A stretch of 64,000 bases of DNA, taken from assembly GCA_030059675.1 (NCBI GenBank), contig JANVYQ010000001.1, positions 216,753 to 280,752 of the forward strand, given 5' to 3'. The DNA comes from Candidatus Pelearchaeum maunauluense. GTDB lineage: Archaea > Thermoproteota > Nitrososphaeria_A > Caldarchaeales > Caldarchaeaceae. A program made the translations under genes and the position numbers. A model generated the notes under the pieces. That model saw only the letters and a list, made by a program, of their open reading frames with translations, did no database searches and was not told where the DNA came from. Shown here piece by piece: positions 3,267 through 64,000 of this stretch. Positions within the stretch are counted from its first letter, which is position 1. Each line of letters begins with the position of its first letter.

Positions 3267-3341
3267 GCGGCCGTGGTCTAGCCTGGGTATGACACGGGCC
3301 TGCCACGCCCGGAATCGCGGGTTCAAATCCCGCCGGCCGCA
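3267..3341 (+). tRNA. tRNA-Gly (anticodon GCC)
   Basis: Acceptor stem GCGGCCG/CGGCCGC with discriminator A. Anticodon stem CGGGC/GCCCG with loop CTGCCAC. T-arm GCGGGTTCAAATCCCGC. No intron. Confidence 0.85.
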
Positions 3342-3357
3342 TACATTACTTAGTTGT

Positions 3358-3933
3358 TTATTGTTTGTCTTGTTTCAGCTTCATGTGTATTATTCCTCTT
3401 GCTATGTTATGTTCTATTATCGTTATATTGTATTCGTCAAGCAATCCCTTTAGGAATTCCATTATGCATTTTGTTGATTCTATCTTATTTCCTATTCCTA
3501 TGAGCCCCACTTCATATGTTATGTTTCCCAGGTATTTTATCTCTAGGTTTTTGATTGGGAGATACTTGGCGTATGTGTCTGCGAGGTGTATTAGCTGGTC
3601 TAGGTCTTTGGCGTATATTTTTATTAGCGCTGATACTTCCTGGCCTAGTTTATAGAAGCGTTTTAGGAGCTTCTCAGGGTCGTGCCTATAGAGCTTCTCT
3701 ATTAGGTCGTCCATGAAGTCAGATGGTAGGATTACGGCGTCAACCTCGCTTAATAGTCTATGGACTAACCAAAGGTTTAATATGACGCGCATATCGGCGC
3801 CTTCGTTAAGCAGTGCTACTGCGTTCTCCATTATTTCATTAACGAGAGCGTAGAGTGTCATCTTGCGCTCTCTAGCTATCGTAGCTAGTTGTTTGGCAAT
3901 CTTTTCATCAACCGCTAAAGAAGTTCTAGACAC
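3358..3933 (-). CDS. hypothetical protein with an N-terminal ribbon-helix-helix-like segment; visibly AT-rich gene
   Basis: 191 aa. The N-terminus MSRTSLAVDEKIAKQLATIARERKMTLYALVNEIME resembles CopG/Arc RHH. The gene and its flanks (3342-4080) are clearly more AT-rich than surrounding genes and lie at the 3' side of tRNA-Gly. Confidence 0.45.
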   Translation of the reverse strand: MSRTSLAVDEKIAKQLATIARERKMTLYALVNEIMENAVALLNEGADMRVILNLWLVHRLLSEVDAVILPSDFMDDLIEKLYRHDPEKLLKRFYKLGQEVSALIKIYAKDLDQLIHLADTYAKYLPIKNLEIKYLGNITYEVGLIGIGNKIESTKCIMEFLKGLLDEYNITIIEHNIARGIIHMKLKQDKQ

Positions 3934-7490: not shown

Positions 7491-8402
7491 CTAGGCTCTT
7501 GAAAACATCGGCATATACGCTTCTCTCTCCATAACCAGCCTAACCCATCGCCTGCCAGCTATTCCATGCATCAATAGGGGGGCTGAGGCTATGAGCATGG
7601 AGAGCGGGCCAGGTATCAACGACCTCATCAACAACCCAGCGTCGCTGGGGGCTGGTAGCGTTAGTGGGAGTATGATAAGCACGGCCATGGAAGAGACTAT
7701 GATGATGCGGGAGAGCTGCTCAAGTCTATGTAGTTTCTCAGGCCTATGTGGCTCTTTGTGCATGAGCCTTCTGCGTATGTTGTTCCTTAGAAAGAGAAGC
7801 GTCATGCTGGCTAACGTTGCTATGACTGCCAGGATGGAGATGTTCAGGACGGTAGAAGAGTATTGTGAGCCGTAGATTATCGCCATGAGTAGGAACGCTA
7901 CCGAGAGGAAGCCCATGGAGCTTAGGAGAGCTGAATACGACTCGGCAAGCCTCTTAAGCTTCTCAACCATCTTCTCAAACTCGGCCTCAGGAGACGCCAG
8001 AAACTTCTGGAACTCTATCAGCGTAAAATCGCCAAGACCTACGCCAGCCTGCGCGGCGTGGCTAAGCCTATTGAGAAGCTCGCGGTGGTTTTGGTCTATA
8101 TTATCCGAGGCAGCAGCCCTAAGAGCGGCTGTCTGCAAGTACCCCCACTTCTCAACCATCACCTGTATTTTGGCGAATAGATACGAGACTGGTGTTAGGA
8201 GCTTTTCGCGGCCTAGAATCCGTAGAGCGGTTTTGAGCGGTATCCCTGAAGCTCCTAGGCTTGTTAGGTAGAGTAGTGTTATTGGGTAGAGTTCTGACAG
8301 CCTTCTGTTTAGGGAGAATCGCTTGAGGAGCCTTGTTTTGTGGTTTGTTCTCTTATTTCTGTCTGAGCCATACGCTCTCTCCCCGCTCAACGCGCTCGGC
8401 AA
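7491..8402 (-). CDS. flaJ: archaellum/type IV pilus membrane protein FlaJ/TadC-like, N-terminal T2SSF-domain half
   Basis: 303 aa with cytoplasmic helical domain plus TM pairs typical of the GspF/FlaJ family. It lies directly downstream of the flaI remnants. Together with 6823-7446 it totals about 510 aa, the usual FlaJ size. Confidence 0.6.
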   Translation of the reverse strand: MPSALSGERAYGSDRNKRTNHKTRLLKRFSLNRRLSELYPITLLYLTSLGASGIPLKTALRILGREKLLTPVSYLFAKIQVMVEKWGYLQTAALRAAASDNIDQNHRELLNRLSHAAQAGVGLGDFTLIEFQKFLASPEAEFEKMVEKLKRLAESYSALLSSMGFLSVAFLLMAIIYGSQYSSTVLNISILAVIATLASMTLLFLRNNIRRRLMHKEPHRPEKLHRLEQLSRIIIVSSMAVLIILPLTLPAPSDAGLLMRSLIPGPLSMLIASAPLLMHGIAGRRWVRLVMEREAYMPMFSRA

Positions 8403-10065
8403 CCTTTGCCACGCCCTCGTCGTAGCAGAGCTTCACAACGTTCCAAACCTGCTCGTAGTCGGTTATCCCCAGCTCCACTAGGCGCTGGAGAATCCACGCC
8501 CTCCTCTCCAGCTCGTCATAAACCCGCCGCGCATCGCGGCGCGAGAAACCCATAAGAGTAAGTATCTTGGTCTCAAGAAGAAAGCTGTTTCCCTCACCCC
8601 TAAAACATGCACACCATCAACAGCATCCCAGCTGAAGAGCTCTATGAAGTCAAAACTATCCATGCTTGGGTCGTAGCCCGCCATCTCATTTACGCTCAGT
8701 ATGCGGCGCTCAACCTTCCCTGTCCGCGGTATCCTTACCGCGCTCTGGATTACTACGCAGTTGAGTATATCTATGTAGGTCTTGGGTATGTTTATCGGGT
8801 CTCCCGTGAGGCGTTGTATAACCTTCTCCACAGAGCCTGCGTGGAACGTTGCCAGCACTGGATGCCCTGTCTGCATGGCTTGGAATGCCACCGTGGCCTC
8901 GGCTCCGCGTATCTCGCCGACTATGATGAAGTTCGGCCTCTGCCTAAGCGCCGCCTTGAGCAGGTCAAAGAGCTCCACACTGGGTCCTCCCTGCTCGCCC
9001 TGCCTAGTAACCTCCCTAACCCAGTTGCCGTGGGGGACGATTATCTCAGGCGTGTCCTCTATGCTTATTATCTTGGCCTTTGGGTTGATGAAGACGCAGG
9101 CCGCTCTCAGGGCTGTTGTCTTCCCAGAGGCGGTCTCCCACAGAACCATACACTAAAGCCATACTCAAGCAGTAGCCAGAGGTAGGCAGCCTCAAGGGCG
9201 CTGAGCGTGCCCCACTGTATCAGGCTGGTTATGCTCACAGGCTTCTCGGAGAACTTTCTTATCGTGAAGTTTGAGCCACACCTGCTAATATCGCTGCCGA
9301 ACACTATGTTTATGCGCAAGCCGTCTGGGAGGGGGCGTCGACTATGGGCCGTCTATACGTTACAGGCCTCCCAGCCCTCTCCGAGAGCCTTAAGACAAAG
9401 CCATCAAGCTCCTCCGCGCCATTAAACCTAACGTTAGTCTCACAGCTTCCGAAGATTTTATGCTCAACAAACACGGGCCCGACGCCGTCGCATGGTATAT
9501 CCTCTATGTATTGGTCGCGGATGAACGGCTCAAGCGGGCCTAGATAGACCTTCTCCATGACCATCTCAAAGCGGAGCGCGTCAAACGTTTCCTGATTCAC
9601 GTATATTGCGAGCAGCTTACCCTTACGTCTCGCTTCATTATATTCCCAGAGCTCTAGGCTGTCGTCAACTACTAGAATTTGGTCCAGCAGCTCCATGAGG
9701 AGCTGTTCATGCTCCTCTTTTGTCGCGAATGTTTTGGTAGCGTCTATGAGCGCCGCCATTCCTTCTTCAACCAGCATAAGCAGGTCCCGCGCCTCTGGAG
9801 GAGCTTGCGGCGTTACCGCGTTGTAATACGCGCGCTCACCCTCGCGCGAGTAGACGTGTATGAAGATTGGGACTCCCACTGGGTAGATTATGCTGAAGCT
9901 CTTCTGGTATCGTAGGTCTCTGGAGAGCTGTTCGCGGTACTCTATTGGCCTGCCTGTCCTGCGGCTCCATTCTATGATATACCTCTGTAGATGCGGGAAA
10001 CGCGCGGCTATTCTTCTTATTTCTGCGCCGCCAGCGAGTTTTTGCTGGGAGACCTGAACCGACAT
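8353..10065 (-). pseudogene. flaI: archaellum ATPase FlaI (VirB11/PilB-family secretion ATPase), broken into four frame segments
   Basis: Segments 9310-10065, 9107-9319, 8478-9149 and 8353-8553 read as follows. N-domain ...YIEDIPCDGVGPVFVEHKIFGSCETNVRFNGAEELDGFVLRLSERAGRPVTYRRPIVDA. Then INIVFGSDISRCGSNFTIRKF...LWLLLEY. Then Walker A WETASGKTTAL ...IEDTPEI...RPNFIIVGEIRGAEA...FQAMQTGH. Then C-terminal DARRVYDELERRAWILQRLVELGITDYEQVW. The junctions fall at a C5 run (about 9322), at about 9149/9107, and at a T-run (about 8553). Confidence 0.8.
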
Positions 10066-16377: not shown

Positions 16378-18057
16378 TTATTGTATCGTTGGCTTCGTTA
16401 TAGCTCCTAGTGATGCAGAGGCTACTAGTGATGCATATTTTGCGAGGAGTCCGCTGGTATAGCGTGGTGGGCGCGGACGCCAACTCTCAAGTCGTTTCTT
16501 CAACTCGTTCTCAGAGACGAGCACGTCAAGCCTACCCTTCTCAGCGTCTATGACTATCTTATCACCTTCTTCCACCACCGCTATAGGGCCCCCCACAGCA
16601 GCCTCAGGCGATGTGTGCCCCACCATCATACCGCGTGTGGCGCCGCTAAACCTGCCATCAGTAACCATAGCGACATGCTCGCCCAGCCCAGCACCCACGA
16701 TAGCCGCTGTTACGCGGAGCATCTCAGGCATGCCAGGACCGCCGCGCGGCCCTTCATACCTAATGACTACCACATCGCCTTCTTGTATCTCGTTACGTCT
16801 AAGGGCTTCAAAAACGCCCTCCTCGCCGTCAAAGGGTTTAGCCCTGCCCTCAAAGCGCGTAATTCCCGTTGCAGCGACCTTCAGTACGGCGCCTTCAGGC
16901 GCAAGTGTGCCGCGTAGTATCTTAATGCCGCCAGTCGGCTTGATGGGTTGGGAAACCTCCTTAACTATATGCGAGTGCTGAACTTCTGGGAATTTGTAGC
17001 TCTCCAAGCTCTCCTTGAGGGACTTCCCGCTTATGGTGAGGACATCGCCATTTAGAAGGCCTGCCTTCATGAGCTTCCGCAGGATTATGGGGACACCACC
17101 AACCTGGTCTAGGTCGGACATCACGTAGAGGCCGCCAGGCCTCAGGCTGGCTATGTAGGGGGTCTTGCTGGATATTCTCTCAAAGTCTTCCAGCGAGAGC
17201 TTTACACCAGCCTCGTAAGCTATGGCGAGCAGGTGAAGGATAGCGTTGGTAGAGCCGCCCATAGCCATCAACACCGCTATGGCATTTTCAAACGCTTCAA
17301 AGGTCATGATGTCGCGTGGCTTGAGGCCAGTTTCTATAGCCTTGGCAAGCGCCATACCAGTCTCATACGCGTACGCTGCTCTCCGCGCTGATGTCGCAGG
17401 CGGGGATGCGCTGCCTAGTAGAGCTATGCCCAGGGCCTCGGAGAGGGAGGCCATAGTATTGGCCGTGAAGAGGCCAGCACATGTTCCATACGTTGGATGG
17501 GCGAAACGCTCAACCATCAAGAGCTCTTCCTCGCTAACAATCCCCTTGACATAGCCGCCCAGCGACTCATACACATCCTCAATAGTCAGCTTCCTATCGC
17601 CGCAGAAGCCAGGCTCCGCAGTTCCACCGTATAGATATGCGGCAGGCCTGTTGATGCGCGCCATGGCCATCATAAGCCCAGGCTCAGTCTTATCACAGCC
17701 TCCTATACCTACGAAACCATCAAACGCGTGAGCCATCACCTGCGCTTCAGCCGTGTCTGCGATTAGCTCGCGGCTCACCAAACTATAACGCATACCCTCA
17801 GTTCCCATGCTTATGTTATCATTCACCACTATCGTAGGCATGGCGAGGGCTGAGGCACCCATACTTCTAATCCCCTCCTTAACGTATCTGACGAGGTTGA
17901 GAGTGTGGAAGTTGCATGGCCCAGCCTCGCTCCAGGCAACCACGACGGCGGCGAGAGGCTTGCCCACATCCTCGTCCGTCAGCCCTACAGAGCGCAGAAA
18001 AGCACGATGGGGAGCATTAACAATACCAACATAACGCTCAACGCTAGGCCTATCCAT
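16378..18057 (-). CDS. ilvD: dihydroxy-acid dehydratase
   Basis: 559 aa with IlvD/EDD signatures, including CDKTEPG (CDKxxPG) and the C-terminal SGATRG... region. Confidence 0.9.
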
Positions 18058-59834: not shown

Positions 59835-60527
59835 TTAACGCCTCTTCCTCTGGTATTCGTAGGACTCTCCTGGGTTTAGGACTACCACTTTAACGCCCTT
59901 GGCTTTTCTCTTGACTAGGCGGGCAAACTCGTTGGGGTCTTGTTTTATCGCGTCAAAGGTGTTGTAGTGCATGGGTATCGCTACTTTTGGTTTTATGAGC
60001 GCCGCTGCTACCGCTGCTTCTGTCGGGCTCATGGTGAATAGGCTTCCTATCGGTAGTAGTGCTATGTCTGGCTTGTAGAGCTGTCCTATCAGCTTCATGT
60101 CGCCGAAGAGTCCTGTGTCGCCTGCGTGGTAAATTGTTGCTTCTTCGCCTCGTATGATTATGCCGCATGGGTTTCCTGAGTGGTGTGCTGGTGTGAGCGC
60201 CGCTCTTATCCCCTCAACATCAAAGAAGCCGCCTATGTTAGCGCCTAGGGTTTTCTCCACACCCGCGTCGCTGGCCTTGACGGTCAGCTCATACATGCCA
60301 ACAACGGTGGCGCCCAGCCTCTTAGCAAGCTCAAAAGCATCACCCACATGGTCAAAATGCTCGTGGGAGACGAAGACGATGTCAGCCCTGTCTATCTCCT
60401 CAGGCTTCACAGAGGCAACAGGGTTCTGCGACAGGAATGGGTCTATGAGAATCACCTTACCGTCCAGCTCAATACGCCACGCGGCATGACCGAGCCACTC
60501 AAGACGCGCCATACAAAACACCAGCAA
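59835..60527 (-). CDS. metallo-beta-lactamase-fold hydrolase (UPF0173-like)
   Basis: HEHFDHVGD motif, as HxHxDH. 230 aa. Confidence 0.75.
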   Translation of the reverse strand: MLVFCMARLEWLGHAAWRIELDGKVILIDPFLSQNPVASVKPEEIDRADIVFVSHEHFDHVGDAFELAKRLGATVVGMYELTVKASDAGVEKTLGANIGGFFDVEGIRAALTPAHHSGNPCGIIIRGEEATIYHAGDTGLFGDMKLIGQLYKPDIALLPIGSLFTMSPTEAAVAAALIKPKVAIPMHYNTFDAIKQDPNEFARLVKRKAKGVKVVVLNPGESYEYQRKRR

Positions 60528-60597
60528 TAACGGGGTGTGCTGACACTATTTAAACAGAAGGAGCATTATTGTAGAGATTTAAGAGAGAGACGAATGC

Positions 60598-60984
60598 TTG
60601 GATAATGTTGGGATGGGTCTCGTCTATGTGAATGGCTCAGTAGCCTATGGCGGGAAGAGGGTTAGGGTCAGCTTCTTAGTGGATTCATGCGCCACCTATA
60701 CTGTCTTGAAGAAAGCTGTCTGGGCTGAGCTGGGCTTAAAGCCTATGAGGGAGTCCGAGTTCATACTGGCTGACGGCACGGTGATAAAGAGAGCGTTATC
60801 AGAGGCCTTGATAGAGCTTCCAGGCTATGGAGAGTATCACAGCCCAGTAGTCTTAGGCGAGGAGGAAGACGAAAACATGCTGGGAGCGGTAACTCTTGAG
60901 ATATTCGGGCTGGTTTTAGACCCGTTTAAACGCGAGCTAAGGCCTATAAGGTCTTTGATGAAGCTTCTAGCCGCTAAGCTCTAG
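60598..60984 (+). CDS. retropepsin-like aspartic protease
   Basis: 128 aa with the DSCAT motif in VRVSFLVDSCATYTVL (clan AA D-S/T-G-A-like) and a flap-like ...ADGTVIKRA... segment. Confidence 0.45.
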   Translation: MDNVGMGLVYVNGSVAYGGKRVRVSFLVDSCATYTVLKKAVWAELGLKPMRESEFILADGTVIKRALSEALIELPGYGEYHSPVVLGEEEDENMLGAVTLEIFGLVLDPFKRELRPIRSLMKLLAAKL

Positions 60985-61329
60985 GTAGAGCTTCACGGCA
61001 AGCTCGGCGAATCTTGGGTCGTTAATGTCGGTGCCCAACTCCTCTATGGCTACGTTTCTGCCTAGCTGTTGTTTTAGGCGTTCTACGAAGAGCTTATTGC
61101 TCCCAGGCTCGTATAGCTCTCCGCCCTCTACGTCTAGGACTGACCAGCCCCTCGTGGGTATTACGAATGCTATCCCCCTTTTGAATTGGTTTAGCTTCTG
61201 GGCTAGCGTGTCGCATACCTGCATGAGCTCCTCGCGGATTAGCCTGACGTTGAGGTTGTATGGGTTGTGGGTGGATTTTACATCCCTCCCTGAAGCGTTG
61301 GGGTATGCTCTCAAGGGGGCCGAAGACAA
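60967..61329 (-). CDS. hypothetical protein, possible gene fragment
   Basis: 120 aa ORF. It overlaps the 3' part of the aldolase remnant in another frame. No motif recognised. Confidence 0.2.
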   Translation of the reverse strand: MSSAPLRAYPNASGRDVKSTHNPYNLNVRLIREELMQVCDTLAQKLNQFKRGIAFVIPTRGWSVLDVEGGELYEPGSNKLFVERLKQQLGRNVAIEELGTDINDPRFAELAVKLYLELSG

Positions 61330-61728
61330 GGTAGTTGATGCTCCCTGGAGCAGCGACTAGCGGCGGTACGCGCTCAGCAAGCGCGAACGCAGTAGAGTAG
61401 GACGGATGACCATGAATAACAGCGTTCAACTCAGGCCTAGCCTTGTAAATCCCTAGGTGGAAGCGATACTCCTTAGAGGGCTGCCCCTCCCCCAAAGCTT
61501 ACGCCCCTCAAGGTCTATAACGCTCATCATGACGAGCATCCTATCGCTGTGGTAGTTACCCCCCTCTTGGGCAGCCCCACTCCTAGGCCTCCTCCCCAAC
61601 CTCCTTATCAAATCCCTATACCTCTTGCCTTTGAGGCCTGCCGTTATGAAGTCTCCGTCCGCCTCGATCACGCCTGACAGCCTAGCCACGTCCGTCTGAC
61701 TAGATAGGATGGGTAGAATCTTATACAC
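61094..61728 (-). pseudogene. class II aldolase/adducin-family protein (FucA/MtnB-like), frameshifted
   Basis: 61453-61728 encodes ...SGVIEADGDFITAGLKGKRYRDL...VIDLEGRKLW. Then a -1 slip at a G5 run near 61478. Then 61094-61495 encodes GEGQPSKEYRFHLGIYKARPELNAVIHGHPSYSTAFA, which are the PSsE...H..iY...AVvH.H motifs. Confidence 0.55.
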
Positions 61729-61989
61729 GGTGCCACATCCTATCTTGAGGGGTAGGCCGTGATGGAGGTGTTCACGAAGAGAAGGACGAACTCTACTAGG
61801 CTTAGCCTAGAGTAGTGCAGCAATGTTCCAGTCTTGTCGTTAAAGCTCCCACCACATCCCCTGCAGAGATACCTACCCCACCTCTTAAACAACCCCTTAT
61901 CCAGACACTATTGTTAAAGTTTAAAAATAACTTAATCGAATAGTATGAATGGATAAGACAAGCCGCAGGGCCCTCGAATGGGGGCTCTG

Positions 61990-62490
61990 CTATAATCGTG
62001 TCTCTTCTATTATGTCGTATATATAGGTTACTTTATCTGCTAGTAGTTTCAAGTCTCTTCCTAGAGCGTCTTTAAACGAGGCTATCTCCACTCGTTTTCC
62101 TTGGTCTTTTACAGTCTTCACGGCTTCTATGTAATCCGAGTCCCCACTAACCAGTATAGCCGTATCGTATGCATTCCTAAATGCAAGCGTTATCAGTTTA
62201 GTTACTAACGCAACATCGACGCCCTTTTCTATTCTTATCGATTGTCCTTGAAACTGTCTCTCCCTTAGAGGCCTTGCGAACACCTCTATCCCGTTGAGGC
62301 TTAGGTTATCGTAGAACTTCTGAGGCTTCTTATCAGGATGGTATGAGCCGAAGAATTAACTCCTAACAAGATACCTATCCCCGCAGAGTGATTTAACAAG
62401 CTTAAGATAGTCAATCCTTAGTTGTTTCTTGTTTCTAGCACTCCACCGATTAGCCGAGTGCAAAACATTAGAACCATCTATGAAAATCAT
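61990..62490 (-). pseudogene. NYN (LabA-like PIN) domain protein with in-frame TAA stop at codon 45
   Basis: ATG at complement 62488-62490 gives MIFIDGSNVLHSANRW...YLVRS-TAA(62356-62358)-FFGSYHPDKKP.... This continues in frame into ORF 61990-62283, ending ...DTAILVSGDSDYIEAVKTVKDQGKRVEIASF. The gene is visibly AT-rich. Confidence 0.6.
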
Positions 62491-62503
62491 TACCCGCTCC
62501 AAA

Positions 62504-63598
62504 TCAATCACTCAACCCAAGCTCCTTAAGCAGTCGTGGGTTTTTCTTCGCTATTAACTCTGTTAACCGTTCGTAAAATTCGACAGCTTCTTCTAATGCT
62601 TTAACCTTCTCTGATTCTAGCGGAGTATATAATGCGCCGAATATCCTCATCGCCTTATCGGCCTTCTCCATCTCGGCTTTTATCATCTCAGGCTGCGGCA
62701 AATAATACACCTTCTCAACCATACCAGTGTTATGCTCCATCCAAAGGTCTATCAACTGCTTATTCACCCCTGCGCCTTCTAGCTGTGTCCGAAACCAATT
62801 CCGAAAAACATGTGGATGCAAAACATAGGCCGAGCCGTCAGGCGTCTTCATATCTAAACCTAATCGCTTGAGCAAAGCACCATACTCCTCGTAGAAACGG
62901 TTCTTCGGTATTGGTTTCTCAGGATCGCCATTAACGTGAAACACATATCCCCTGTTTAGTTTCGCTTCATGAATGTAGCGCTCAAGCTCGGCTTTCAGCT
63001 CAGAGAATATAGGAACATCACGGGGGTATCCGCTCTTTGTAATCTCCCCAGGTAGGTGAATCGTGTTATTTTCAAGGTCAATATATTCAACTCGCAGTTT
63101 CAAAGCCTCGCCTAAACGTAATCCTGTCAGAGGCAGGAGATGAAGCAACAACCTCATACGTCTAGACCGTGTAGCCATTATTAGCCGCTGCAGCTCGCTT
63201 AATGAAGGGATGCGGTCTATCCTGCGCGGTGATTTCTTAGGTAGCTTAACCTTCCGCTCAGGTATGCTGATCTCATAATAGTCAAGGAAGGATCGTAGTA
63301 GGTAGAGGCGAAACCTTATGCTCTTCGGAGATAACCCCTTCTCAACCAGCTGGTTTACGAATAGTTGCAGGCCATCCAGTAGTTTACGCCTATTTCCCCT
63401 GCCTAACTCGATAAGTTCAGAAATACTAAATACGCCAAGAATATCTCTAAGCTCCTCCAAGCTCTTAACAAGGGTAGAGTCCTGTCGACGCTTAACCAAC
63501 TGCGGATTCAGCCTTAAATACGGTTCAATACATTCCTCAACTGATGACTCCCCACCACCACGCCCATACCACGACATCAACAGAAATAGGGAGAGCAA
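62504..63598 (-). mobile_element. int: tyrosine recombinase/integrase (intact, pNOB8/XerC-like), adjacent to tRNA-Lys
   Basis: 364 aa. The C-terminal catalytic region has ...R..L... HPHVFRNWFRTQLEGAGVNKQLIDLWMEHNTGMVEKVYY (the H.LR...Y box). The start codon is 33 nt from the 5' end of tRNA-Lys on the opposite strand. Confidence 0.75.
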
Positions 63599-63630
63599 AA
63601 TATTTAAAAATAGTGTTTAGCACCGAACAT

Positions 63631-63705
63631 GGGCCCGTAGCTCAGCCAGGATAGAGCACCGGGCTTTTAACCCGGGGGTCGCGGGTTCAAAGCCCGCCGG
63701 GCCCG
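63631..63705 (+). tRNA. tRNA-Lys (anticodon UUU)
   Basis: Acceptor GGGCCCG/CGGGCCC with discriminator G. Anticodon stem CCGGG/CCCGG with loop CTTTTAA. T-arm GCGGGTTCAAAGCCCGC. Confidence 0.85.
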
Positions 63706-64000
63706 GTTGTTATCTTGTTTTTAGTATGAGGAGGAGTAGTGCCATGCCTATTATGAAGAGGATTAGGCCTGTGAGTTCTATTATTAGTCTCCAGCTTAGT
63801 GCTGCTCCTATTATTATGAGGAGTAGGGCTAGTATGAGGAGGAGTGGTTTTGCTGTTTTTAGTTGTGGCACTTCTGGTCGTTTTCTTTGTTTGTTTTGTT
63901 GATATAATGTTTTTGGTTGTTACATGGAGAGGGCTCCTGCTGCCTTTACTCTTATTCTTATGGCGTTTCCTGGTAGGTATGCTAGTGGTATCTCGTCAAC

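Follow-up and report, generated by a model that had tools for sequence, protein, structure and literature searches.

An integrase–tRNA-Lys junction in Candidatus Pelearchaeum maunauluense as the probable remnant of an element that integrates at the 5′ end of tRNA genes

A tyrosine integrase gene (int) and a tRNA-Lys(UUU) gene stand head to head near the right-hand end of a 64,000-nucleotide (nt) stretch of DNA from Candidatus Pelearchaeum maunauluense (assembly GCA_030059675.1, contig JANVYQ010000001.1, forward-strand positions 216,753 to 280,752). This whole stretch is referred to below as the window, and all coordinates given for it are positions within its 64 kb. The int–tRNA junction very probably represents the int-proximal end of a small cryptic element of a kind that integrates at the 5′ end of tRNA genes, and the copy in the window appears to be a truncated, immobilised remnant. 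Evidence for this interpretation comes from the anatomy of the junction, its conservation throughout a family of related loci, direct repeats (attachment sites, att) that flank the element in relatives, the absence of a distal att from the window, and a deletion scar next to the remnant. A first-pass annotation, made from the sequence alone, had proposed either integration by way of the tRNA's 5′ half or two successive integrations at the same gene. The features involved are listed in Table 1.

Table 1. Features at and around the junction in the window, and repeats of the tRNA 5′ end in related loci (prefix L)
Feature	Position	Strand	Evidence and remarks
Tyrosine integrase gene int, intact	62504..63577	minus	Pfam PF00589 1.3e-17; PDB 4a8e XerA 6.8e-16; 39 homologues at 46-100% identity
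tRNA-Lys(UUU), intact, putatively attB-derived target; 5′ end towards int start	63631..63705	plus	ARAGORN; Rfam RF00005 67.5 bits, E 8.6e-14
Inferred att core, tRNA nt 1 to ~22, GGGCCCGTAGCTCAGCCAGGAT	63631..63652	plus	Repeats in L002/L003, L016, L036, L044
Spacer, putatively element-derived, int ATG to tRNA +1	63578..63630		Alignment A2 of 16 junctions
NYN-domain pseudogene	61990..62511	minus	Pfam NYN 7.7e-15 and 0.0044 on two halves; GC 0.414
AT-rich non-coding gap, no att	61893..61989		GC 0.42; composition shifts here from the GC-rich fragments to the remnant
Two short open reading frames that match IS1/IS1595 weakly and collinearly (a Zn-ribbon followed by a transposase core)	61453..61892	minus	NCBIfam NF050000 E 0.043, NF033547 E 0.048
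Class II aldolase fragment, ~45 of ~185 residues	61358..61489	minus	Pfam PF00596 8.5e-12, profile positions 64-110 only
UPF0261 C-terminal third	60967..61378	minus	Pfam UPF0261_C 5.1e-21
DNA 3′ of the tRNA: T-rich trailer, 53-residue hydrophobic open reading frame, last ~25 codons of another gene	63707..64000	minus	GC 0.408
L002/L003, 23-bp repeat	9928-9950 and 17331-17353
L016, 21-bp repeat	~14-34 and 8085-8105
L036, 23-bp repeat	7.6 kb apart
L044, 20-bp repeat	8.9 kb apart

Anatomy of the junction

The longest open reading frame (ORF) at the int locus extends from 62504 to 63598 on the minus strand and encodes 364 amino acids from a TTG codon. Homologues support a start at the ATG at 63577, giving a protein of 357 amino acids that is 100% identical to NCBI protein P0001 ('MAG: Aigarchaeota archaeon', where MAG stands for metagenome-assembled genome). 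In an alignment with Pyrococcus abyssi XerA (PDB 4a8e), the six catalytic residues R154, K181, H256, R259, H282 and Y291 are all matched. This hexad is invariant across 22 int homologues, and box II (H256-V-F-R259, of the form HxxR) is invariant across the int family. Because all six catalytic residues are present, we consider the gene intact, as had been proposed for the integrase beside tRNA-Lys. A Phage_integrase domain together with the R-K-H-R-H/W-Y residues places the protein in the tyrosine recombinase superfamily, and we class it as a classical, non-suicidal, XerA-like integrase that is predicted to be active in recombination.

More specific assignments were also examined. The protein is not a chromosomal XerA, given that it scores 81.9 bits with the NCBIfam equivalog NF040815 versus a cut-off of 220, and its score of 18.6 bits with the SSV-type integrase profile (Pfam PF16795) is below the cut-off of 27. 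A tblastn search of PLSDB plasmids returned distant bacterial recombinases only, as did searches of phage collections, and a scan of viral contigs with int yielded only distant matches at 24-37% identity.

The boundaries of the tRNA-Lys(ttt) gene are predicted almost identically by ARAGORN (63630-63706) and Rfam (63631-63705). The integrase had been described as ending 33 nt from the 5′ end of this tRNA. Instead, the tRNA 5′ end is faced by the start of int, corresponding to the N-terminal end of the protein, such that transcription of the two genes diverges. The reported distance holds approximately for the upstream TTG, which is 32 nt from the tRNA, but the spacer measures 53 nt from the ATG that is supported by homologues.

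A family of elements with a site at the 5′ end of tRNA genes

Homologues of int with their DNA context were drawn from NCBI MAGs, ENA and JGI metagenomes. There are 17 distinct loci whose upstream DNA is long enough for a complete tRNA, and in all of them (17/17) a tRNA-Lys(UUU) or tRNA-Arg(UCU) gene occupies the opposite strand, its 5′ end lying just upstream of int. Some of these tRNAs contain introns, and five further contigs start inside the int-adjacent tRNA. The same head-to-head layout is present in the closest relatives, L099 (78% amino acid identity) and L100 (67%). The loci come from different hosts, including Ca. Calditenuaceae, a Bathyarchaeota MAG and several hot-spring metagenomes. 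Past the 3′ end of the tRNA, their DNA is unrelated from one locus to the next. These different hosts and unrelated flanks indicate that the loci arose by independent insertions rather than by inheritance of a single locus.

In four independent relatives, a second direct copy of the tRNA 5′ end, 20-23 bp in length, is located downstream of int at a distance of 7.4-9 kb. The repeat spans the tRNA from nt 1 to ~20-23, of which the first 16 nt (GGGCCCGTAGCTCAGC) are common to the Lys and Arg tRNAs, and in the family this core precedes the int start codon by 45-70 nt. The integrase gene is full length between the repeats in L002, L016 and L036, and thus is not split by integration. Also located between the repeats are genes of the sort usual in cryptic plasmids, namely Prim-Pol and RHH genes in L002, and a DNA methylase gene and ORFans in L016. 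The DNA past the distal repeat differs in every relative and corresponds to host sequence that was formerly upstream of the tRNA. Judged by these comparisons, integration in the int family takes place on the 5′ side of the tRNA gene, by way of a core of 20-23 bp with which that gene begins, and leaves int unsplit.

The arrangement expected of a 5′-tRNA-integrating element, in which the tRNA 5′ end is repeated and the element lies upstream of an intact tRNA, is present in L002/L003, L016, L036 and L044. The window copy has the proximal site only, with no distal repeat and with a deletion scar. Integration through the 5′ part of the tRNA, as considered in the first-pass annotation, is therefore well supported for the remnant as regards the side that was used, although the site is confined to tRNA nt 1 to ~20-23 and does not take in the whole 5′ half. 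An additional type of junction is found in L018 (positions 1-135), where int with its spacer adjoins a tRNA 5′ end of only 18 nt with an Arg-type D-loop, followed by non-tRNA DNA. This looks like an attP-type or a distal-type junction. The L018 contig of 10.7 kb has no terminal overlap that would mark it as circular.

A conserved spacer that may serve as a bidirectional promoter

The spacer in the window includes a TATA-like box (ATATTTAAAAATA) at 63600-63612 and a conserved GTGTTTAGCACC at 63613-63624. In an alignment of 16 junctions that covers both Lys and Arg targets, the TATA-like box (AA.ATTTAAA) is invariant, and on its tRNA-ward side it is accompanied by a near-invariant GTGTTTAGCA(C/A)CG block. 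The spacer is conserved in this manner although the integrases share only 50-60% identity. In addition, the TATA box is quasi-palindromic and is located ~20-24 nt from the int start codon and from tRNA +1 alike. The conserved spacer is absent from the host DNA upstream of the displaced tRNA 5′ fragments in relatives. These features suggest that the spacer might act as a shared bidirectional promoter, which would produce a leaderless int mRNA in one direction and the rebuilt tRNA in the other. A scan for sigma-70 promoters and terminators, a method that is not applicable to archaea, gave nothing useful.

A probably truncated copy in the window

A complete, excisable element would be bounded by attL and attR, and the window holds a single copy of the core. 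No second copy was found in the 63.6 kb on the int side, either for the 21-mer of the att core at ≤3 mismatches or for its 16-mer at ≤2 mismatches. Thus, the direct repeat of part of tRNA-Lys that had been suggested as a check is lacking on this side, although such repeats of 20-23 bp exist in four relatives. Moreover, no ≥12-mer from tRNA-Lys ± 40 nt recurs in the window, with the exception of a T-arm similarity to tRNA-Gly, and the distal-arm motif of the relatives was not found in the window. Rfam detected no tRNA fragment in 60500-64000 at E ≤ 1. A GGGCCC at 61970, preceded by TTTAAAAATA, was considered as a decayed distal att and rejected, because the match of only 6 nt is judged to be due to chance.

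Next to int is an NYN-domain gene that probably starts at the ATG at 62490 and is interrupted by exactly one in-frame stop codon, a TAA at 62356-62358, as the first-pass annotation had noted. Together, int and NYN have a GC content of 0.445 compared to a window mean of 0.498, which corresponds to the 1.3th percentile of same-size windows. The AT-richness attributed to these genes is therefore real but modest. No tblastn match to NYN exists in 93 loci, and the gene that follows int in the closest relative, L099, is unrelated to it. The DNA similarity of L099 to the window (74% at the nucleotide level) ends at 62516, the end of int. The NYN gene is probably cargo of this particular element.

Beyond NYN, the region 60967-61990 consists of 1 kb of three or four gene fragments, positioned between intact host genes and the element remnant. 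A relative contig of 2.7 kb, L098, carries a full UPF0261 gene of 404 codons where the window retains a C-terminal third. By blastn, positions 884-2733 of L098 correspond to window positions 61378-59535 at 90.0%, and positions 1-883 are unmatched in the window. The end of this alignment places a deletion breakpoint at ~61378. Deletions, whether the same or later ones, thus also removed host DNA. The two short ORFs at 61453-61892 score far below the cut-offs for the IS1595-like families, have no Pfam match at 0.01 and have no other copy in the window; they possibly represent a decayed insertion sequence (IS). Both the order of the deletions and their cause, which possibly involved this IS, are inferred.

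A model for integration and decay

The relatives suggest that these elements are plasmid-like units of 7-9 kb that reside in thermophilic Thermoproteota (Aigarchaeota/Caldarchaeales and Bathyarchaeota). Each carries an attP just upstream of the int start codon, formed by the first ~20-23 nt of tRNA-Lys(UUU) or tRNA-Arg(UCU) behind the spacer with its TATA box. The integrase would recombine this attP with a chromosomal tRNA gene at its 5′ end. Once integrated, the element lies upstream of a rebuilt tRNA, to which it contributes the 5′ end and probably the promoter. The region that formerly preceded the tRNA, with the original host promoter, is displaced along with a tRNA 5′ fragment of 20-23 nt to the far end of the element. 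In the window copy, deletion appears to have removed everything beyond int and NYN, not only the replication genes and the distal att but also host genes nearby, such that the remnant would no longer be able to excise. Presumably, tRNA-Lys is transcribed from the retained element promoter, back to back with int. Loss of the distal end would make tRNA-Lys dependent on this promoter, which would explain why the int-proximal end has persisted.

A broader proposal, which we find plausible but put forward only tentatively, is that these integrases form a coherent and so far uncharacterised family of the classical type, whose obligatory target is the first ~20 nt common to tRNA-Lys(UUU) and tRNA-Arg(UCU). 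On integration, the promoter of the host tRNA would be exchanged for a quasi-palindromic TATA box of the element, from which int would be transcribed one way and the tRNA the other. After loss of the distal end, dependence of an essential tRNA on this box might fix the int-proximal remnant in the genome, a form of 'promoter addiction'.

Evaluation of alternative explanations

Several points count against the interpretation of the locus as a truncated 5′-integrating element. There is no att pair in the window, and integration at this locus is inferred by homology only. An empty site was not recovered among relatives. Specifically, L094-L097, which encode an MBL-fold hydrolase 69-71% identical to that of window positions 59835-60527, are not syntenic and have no tRNA-Lys nearby, and L098 is the only contig that was informative in the synteny comparison. 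NYN occurs in no related element, and its membership in this one is argued from position and composition alone. The assignment of the short ORFs to IS1595 is weak (E ~0.04). Native tRNA genes in these organisms also carry a TATA box at a similar distance, and the spacer is only a putative promoter. Finally, the distal 5′ fragment could sit elsewhere after a rearrangement, as reported for Caldiarchaeum (PMC3293823), instead of having been deleted.

This last point can be extended to an explanation in which nothing has been deleted from the element. It would be complete and mobile, with its distal att (a tRNA 5′ fragment, GGGCCCGTAGCTCAGCCAGGA) moved far away by inversion or translocation between att sites. 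Precedents for such events exist: a tRNA-Thr 5′ fragment and the rebuilt tRNA of Caldiarchaeum are >500 kb apart in a composite genome (PMC3293823), integrases of the pTN3 type cause inversions of the chromosome (PMC8371274), and operons that look cellular are present between the att repeats of L044. However, truncated host genes are found directly beyond NYN, the comparison with L098 reveals a deletion breakpoint, the replication and cargo genes typical of the 7-9-kb relatives are missing, and NYN, the adjoining cargo gene, is itself a pseudogene. For these reasons we consider a displaced distal att unlikely. It is far more improbable that int is a domesticated or host XerA-like recombinase that resides beside the tRNA by chance, without any history of a mobile element at the locus. 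The best PDB and NCBIfam matches are indeed to XerA, and int is intact while the rest of the element has decayed. Yet its score is far from the XerA equivalog cut-off, its homologues are inside att-flanked elements of 7-9 kb, the same junction recurs in unrelated hosts with different flanks, contigs often break at the tRNA, and the composition of int and NYN is atypical.

The remaining explanation, that of two integrations at one tRNA, depends on the DNA at the right-hand end of the window. It holds that int is a remnant on the 5′ side, and that a second element is integrated in the 3′ end of tRNA-Lys and reaches beyond 64000. The visible flank of 294 nt does open with an ORFan-like gene, the predicted small hydrophobic ORF on the minus strand (63710-63871, 53 amino acids), which has no family match in Pfam or NCBIfam. 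In addition, the flank is AT-rich as had been stated, but only mildly so. Its GC content of 0.408 corresponds to the 3.9th percentile of 294-nt windows, a T-rich trailer is expected after a tRNA, and the tRNA 3′ flanks of relatives are similarly AT-rich host DNA. For intergenic DNA behind a tRNA, combined with a short membrane ORF, such a composition is ordinary. The flank contains no tRNA fragment, and specifically no 3′ fragment, nor any repeat, and it lacks similarity to any of the related elements collected. In other words, nothing shows the right flank to be foreign, and its AT-richness is a weak indication. A second integration is also unnecessary to explain int, whose position is the norm for its family. 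The proposal of successive integrations therefore finds no support, and we judge it slightly less probable again than a displaced distal att. Among these explanations, a truncated element integrated at the tRNA 5′ end accounts best for the locus.

Comparison with known integration systems

Elements that integrate on the 5′ side of tRNA genes are rare, but cases have already been published, and the locus in the window is a degraded case of that kind. CalSub-E1 of Ca. Caldiarchaeum subterraneum is a cryptic element encoding a primpol at the 5′-distal region of tRNA-Ser, and of 39 elements that target tRNA genes it was noted as the sole exception (Krupovic et al. 2019, PMC6563490). Like the family described here, it is a small cryptic integrative element with a tyrosine recombinase in an Aigarchaeota host, and a Prim-Pol gene is also present in the relative L002. 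CalSub-E1 differs in its target, which is tRNA-Ser rather than tRNA-Lys(UUU) or tRNA-Arg(UCU), and the window copy, unlike CalSub-E1, is a truncated remnant that has neither replication genes nor a distal att. The gene in the window is best described as the classical XerA-like integrase of a CalSub-E1-like cryptic element, a likeness that is drawn from descriptions.

The pTN3-like integrases of Thermococcales also use the 5′ half of a tRNA, after which the tRNA is expressed from the integrase promoter (Cossu et al. 2017, reviewed in PMC8371274), and a 2021 review considers them 'unique in archaea' for targeting the 5′ half (PMC8371274). These 'suicidal' enzymes of the SSV superfamily share with the window family an attB in the 5′ part of the tRNA and a rebuilt tRNA that is expressed, or in the window family would be expressed, from a promoter on the integrase side. 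However, the attP of pTN3 is inside the int ORF, the gene is split on integration and the att measures 40-50 bp, whereas in the window family an att of 20-23 bp is upstream of the ORF, int remains intact, and the protein carries HxxR as in XerA. An att outside the ORF and an intact int exclude the family from the pTN3/SSV class.

The first-pass annotation had labelled the integrase pNOB8-type. Integrases of this type (She et al. 2002, 2004), which constitute class II, share with the window family a lambda-like logic, an unpartitioned int, an att beside the gene and a tRNA target. They use the 3′ part of the tRNA with an att of 40-50 bp and carry the signature R...YxxR...Y (She et al. 2004, quoted in PMC8371274), whereas the window family uses the tRNA 5′ end and carries R..HxxR..Y. 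The label is therefore apt only operationally, in that integration leaves the gene intact, and it does not agree with the sequence signature, since the motif in question is HVFR.

A further parallel is the 1.8-kb recombinase-bearing insertion at tRNA-Thr(GGU) in Caldiarchaeum, which left a displaced 5′ fragment comprising nt 1-27 (Sugahara et al. 2012, PMC3293823). The host lineage is the same, and here too a recombinase insertion displaces a tRNA 5′ fragment upstream. That case, which is likened to ours by description, involves a different tRNA, a smaller ORF of 813 bp, and the gain of an intron in the rebuilt tRNA.

For this genome, the outcome is a corrected annotation: a probable dead mobile-element remnant, a tRNA-Lys whose 5′ end and promoter are likely derived from that element, and neighbouring genes that are partly deleted. 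What is new is a set of ~20 loci with one conserved junction architecture, a defined att of 20-23 bp and a putatively promoter-bearing spacer. This is a modest addition, but the family picture makes the choice of a site at the tRNA 5′ end, and the replacement of the promoter, directly testable. The comparison is also relevant to a proposal by which mobile elements in this lineage give rise to tRNA fragments and to tRNAs that are split or contain introns (PMC3293823).

Additional observations

Some members of the family depart from the typical organization. In L044 (2695-11659) the integrase is truncated to residues 6-253, and the ~9 kb between the tRNA-Arg 5′ repeats has a content that looks cellular, comprising a branched-chain amino-acid ABC transporter operon and genes for PIG-L, a solute-binding protein and an M20 peptidase. 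This could be due to gene capture or to rearrangement between att sites. In L002, a third copy of the tRNA 5′ end, shorter than the other two (AGCTACGGGCCCA, with 13 nt exact), is located at 17662-17677, 310 bp past the distal att, and resembles a scar that an earlier integration left at the same tRNA-Lys. A subclade at ~48-50% identity (L026, L028, L031, L032 and L037) has a related spacer containing TTTAAAT with neither a tRNA nor a tRNA fragment upstream of int, and may use a different target.

The element DNA adjacent to the distal att is also conserved, with the pattern AAAAG[CT]TTAAAAA[CT]CCTGTAGAGC[AT]ACG... in L002 (17270-17330), L016 (8030-8084) and L044 (11580-11640). In the orientation of the tRNA, a T-run is present within ~45 nt after the displaced 5′ fragment in the same three loci. 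This region could be an arm site for the integrase, or a terminator that prevents read-through from the displaced host promoter.

Many of the metagenome contigs of the family (L014-L038) begin in or beside the tRNA, 100-300 nt upstream of int, which suggests assembly breaks caused by populations that are polymorphic for the insertion. A tRNA-Lys at the end of L006 was considered as a second int remnant and dropped, as no significant similarity to int is present there. In L006 (2564-6843), a Caldiarchaeum-type cluster of ubiquitin, E2, E1, RING and JAB genes adjoins the integration site. Elsewhere in the window, an ORF of 191 codons without a Pfam match (3358-3933, minus strand) is located directly 3′ of tRNA-Gly (3267-3341). 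Its GC content of 0.405 is the lowest among the ten long reading frames listed as having the lowest GC at third codon positions.

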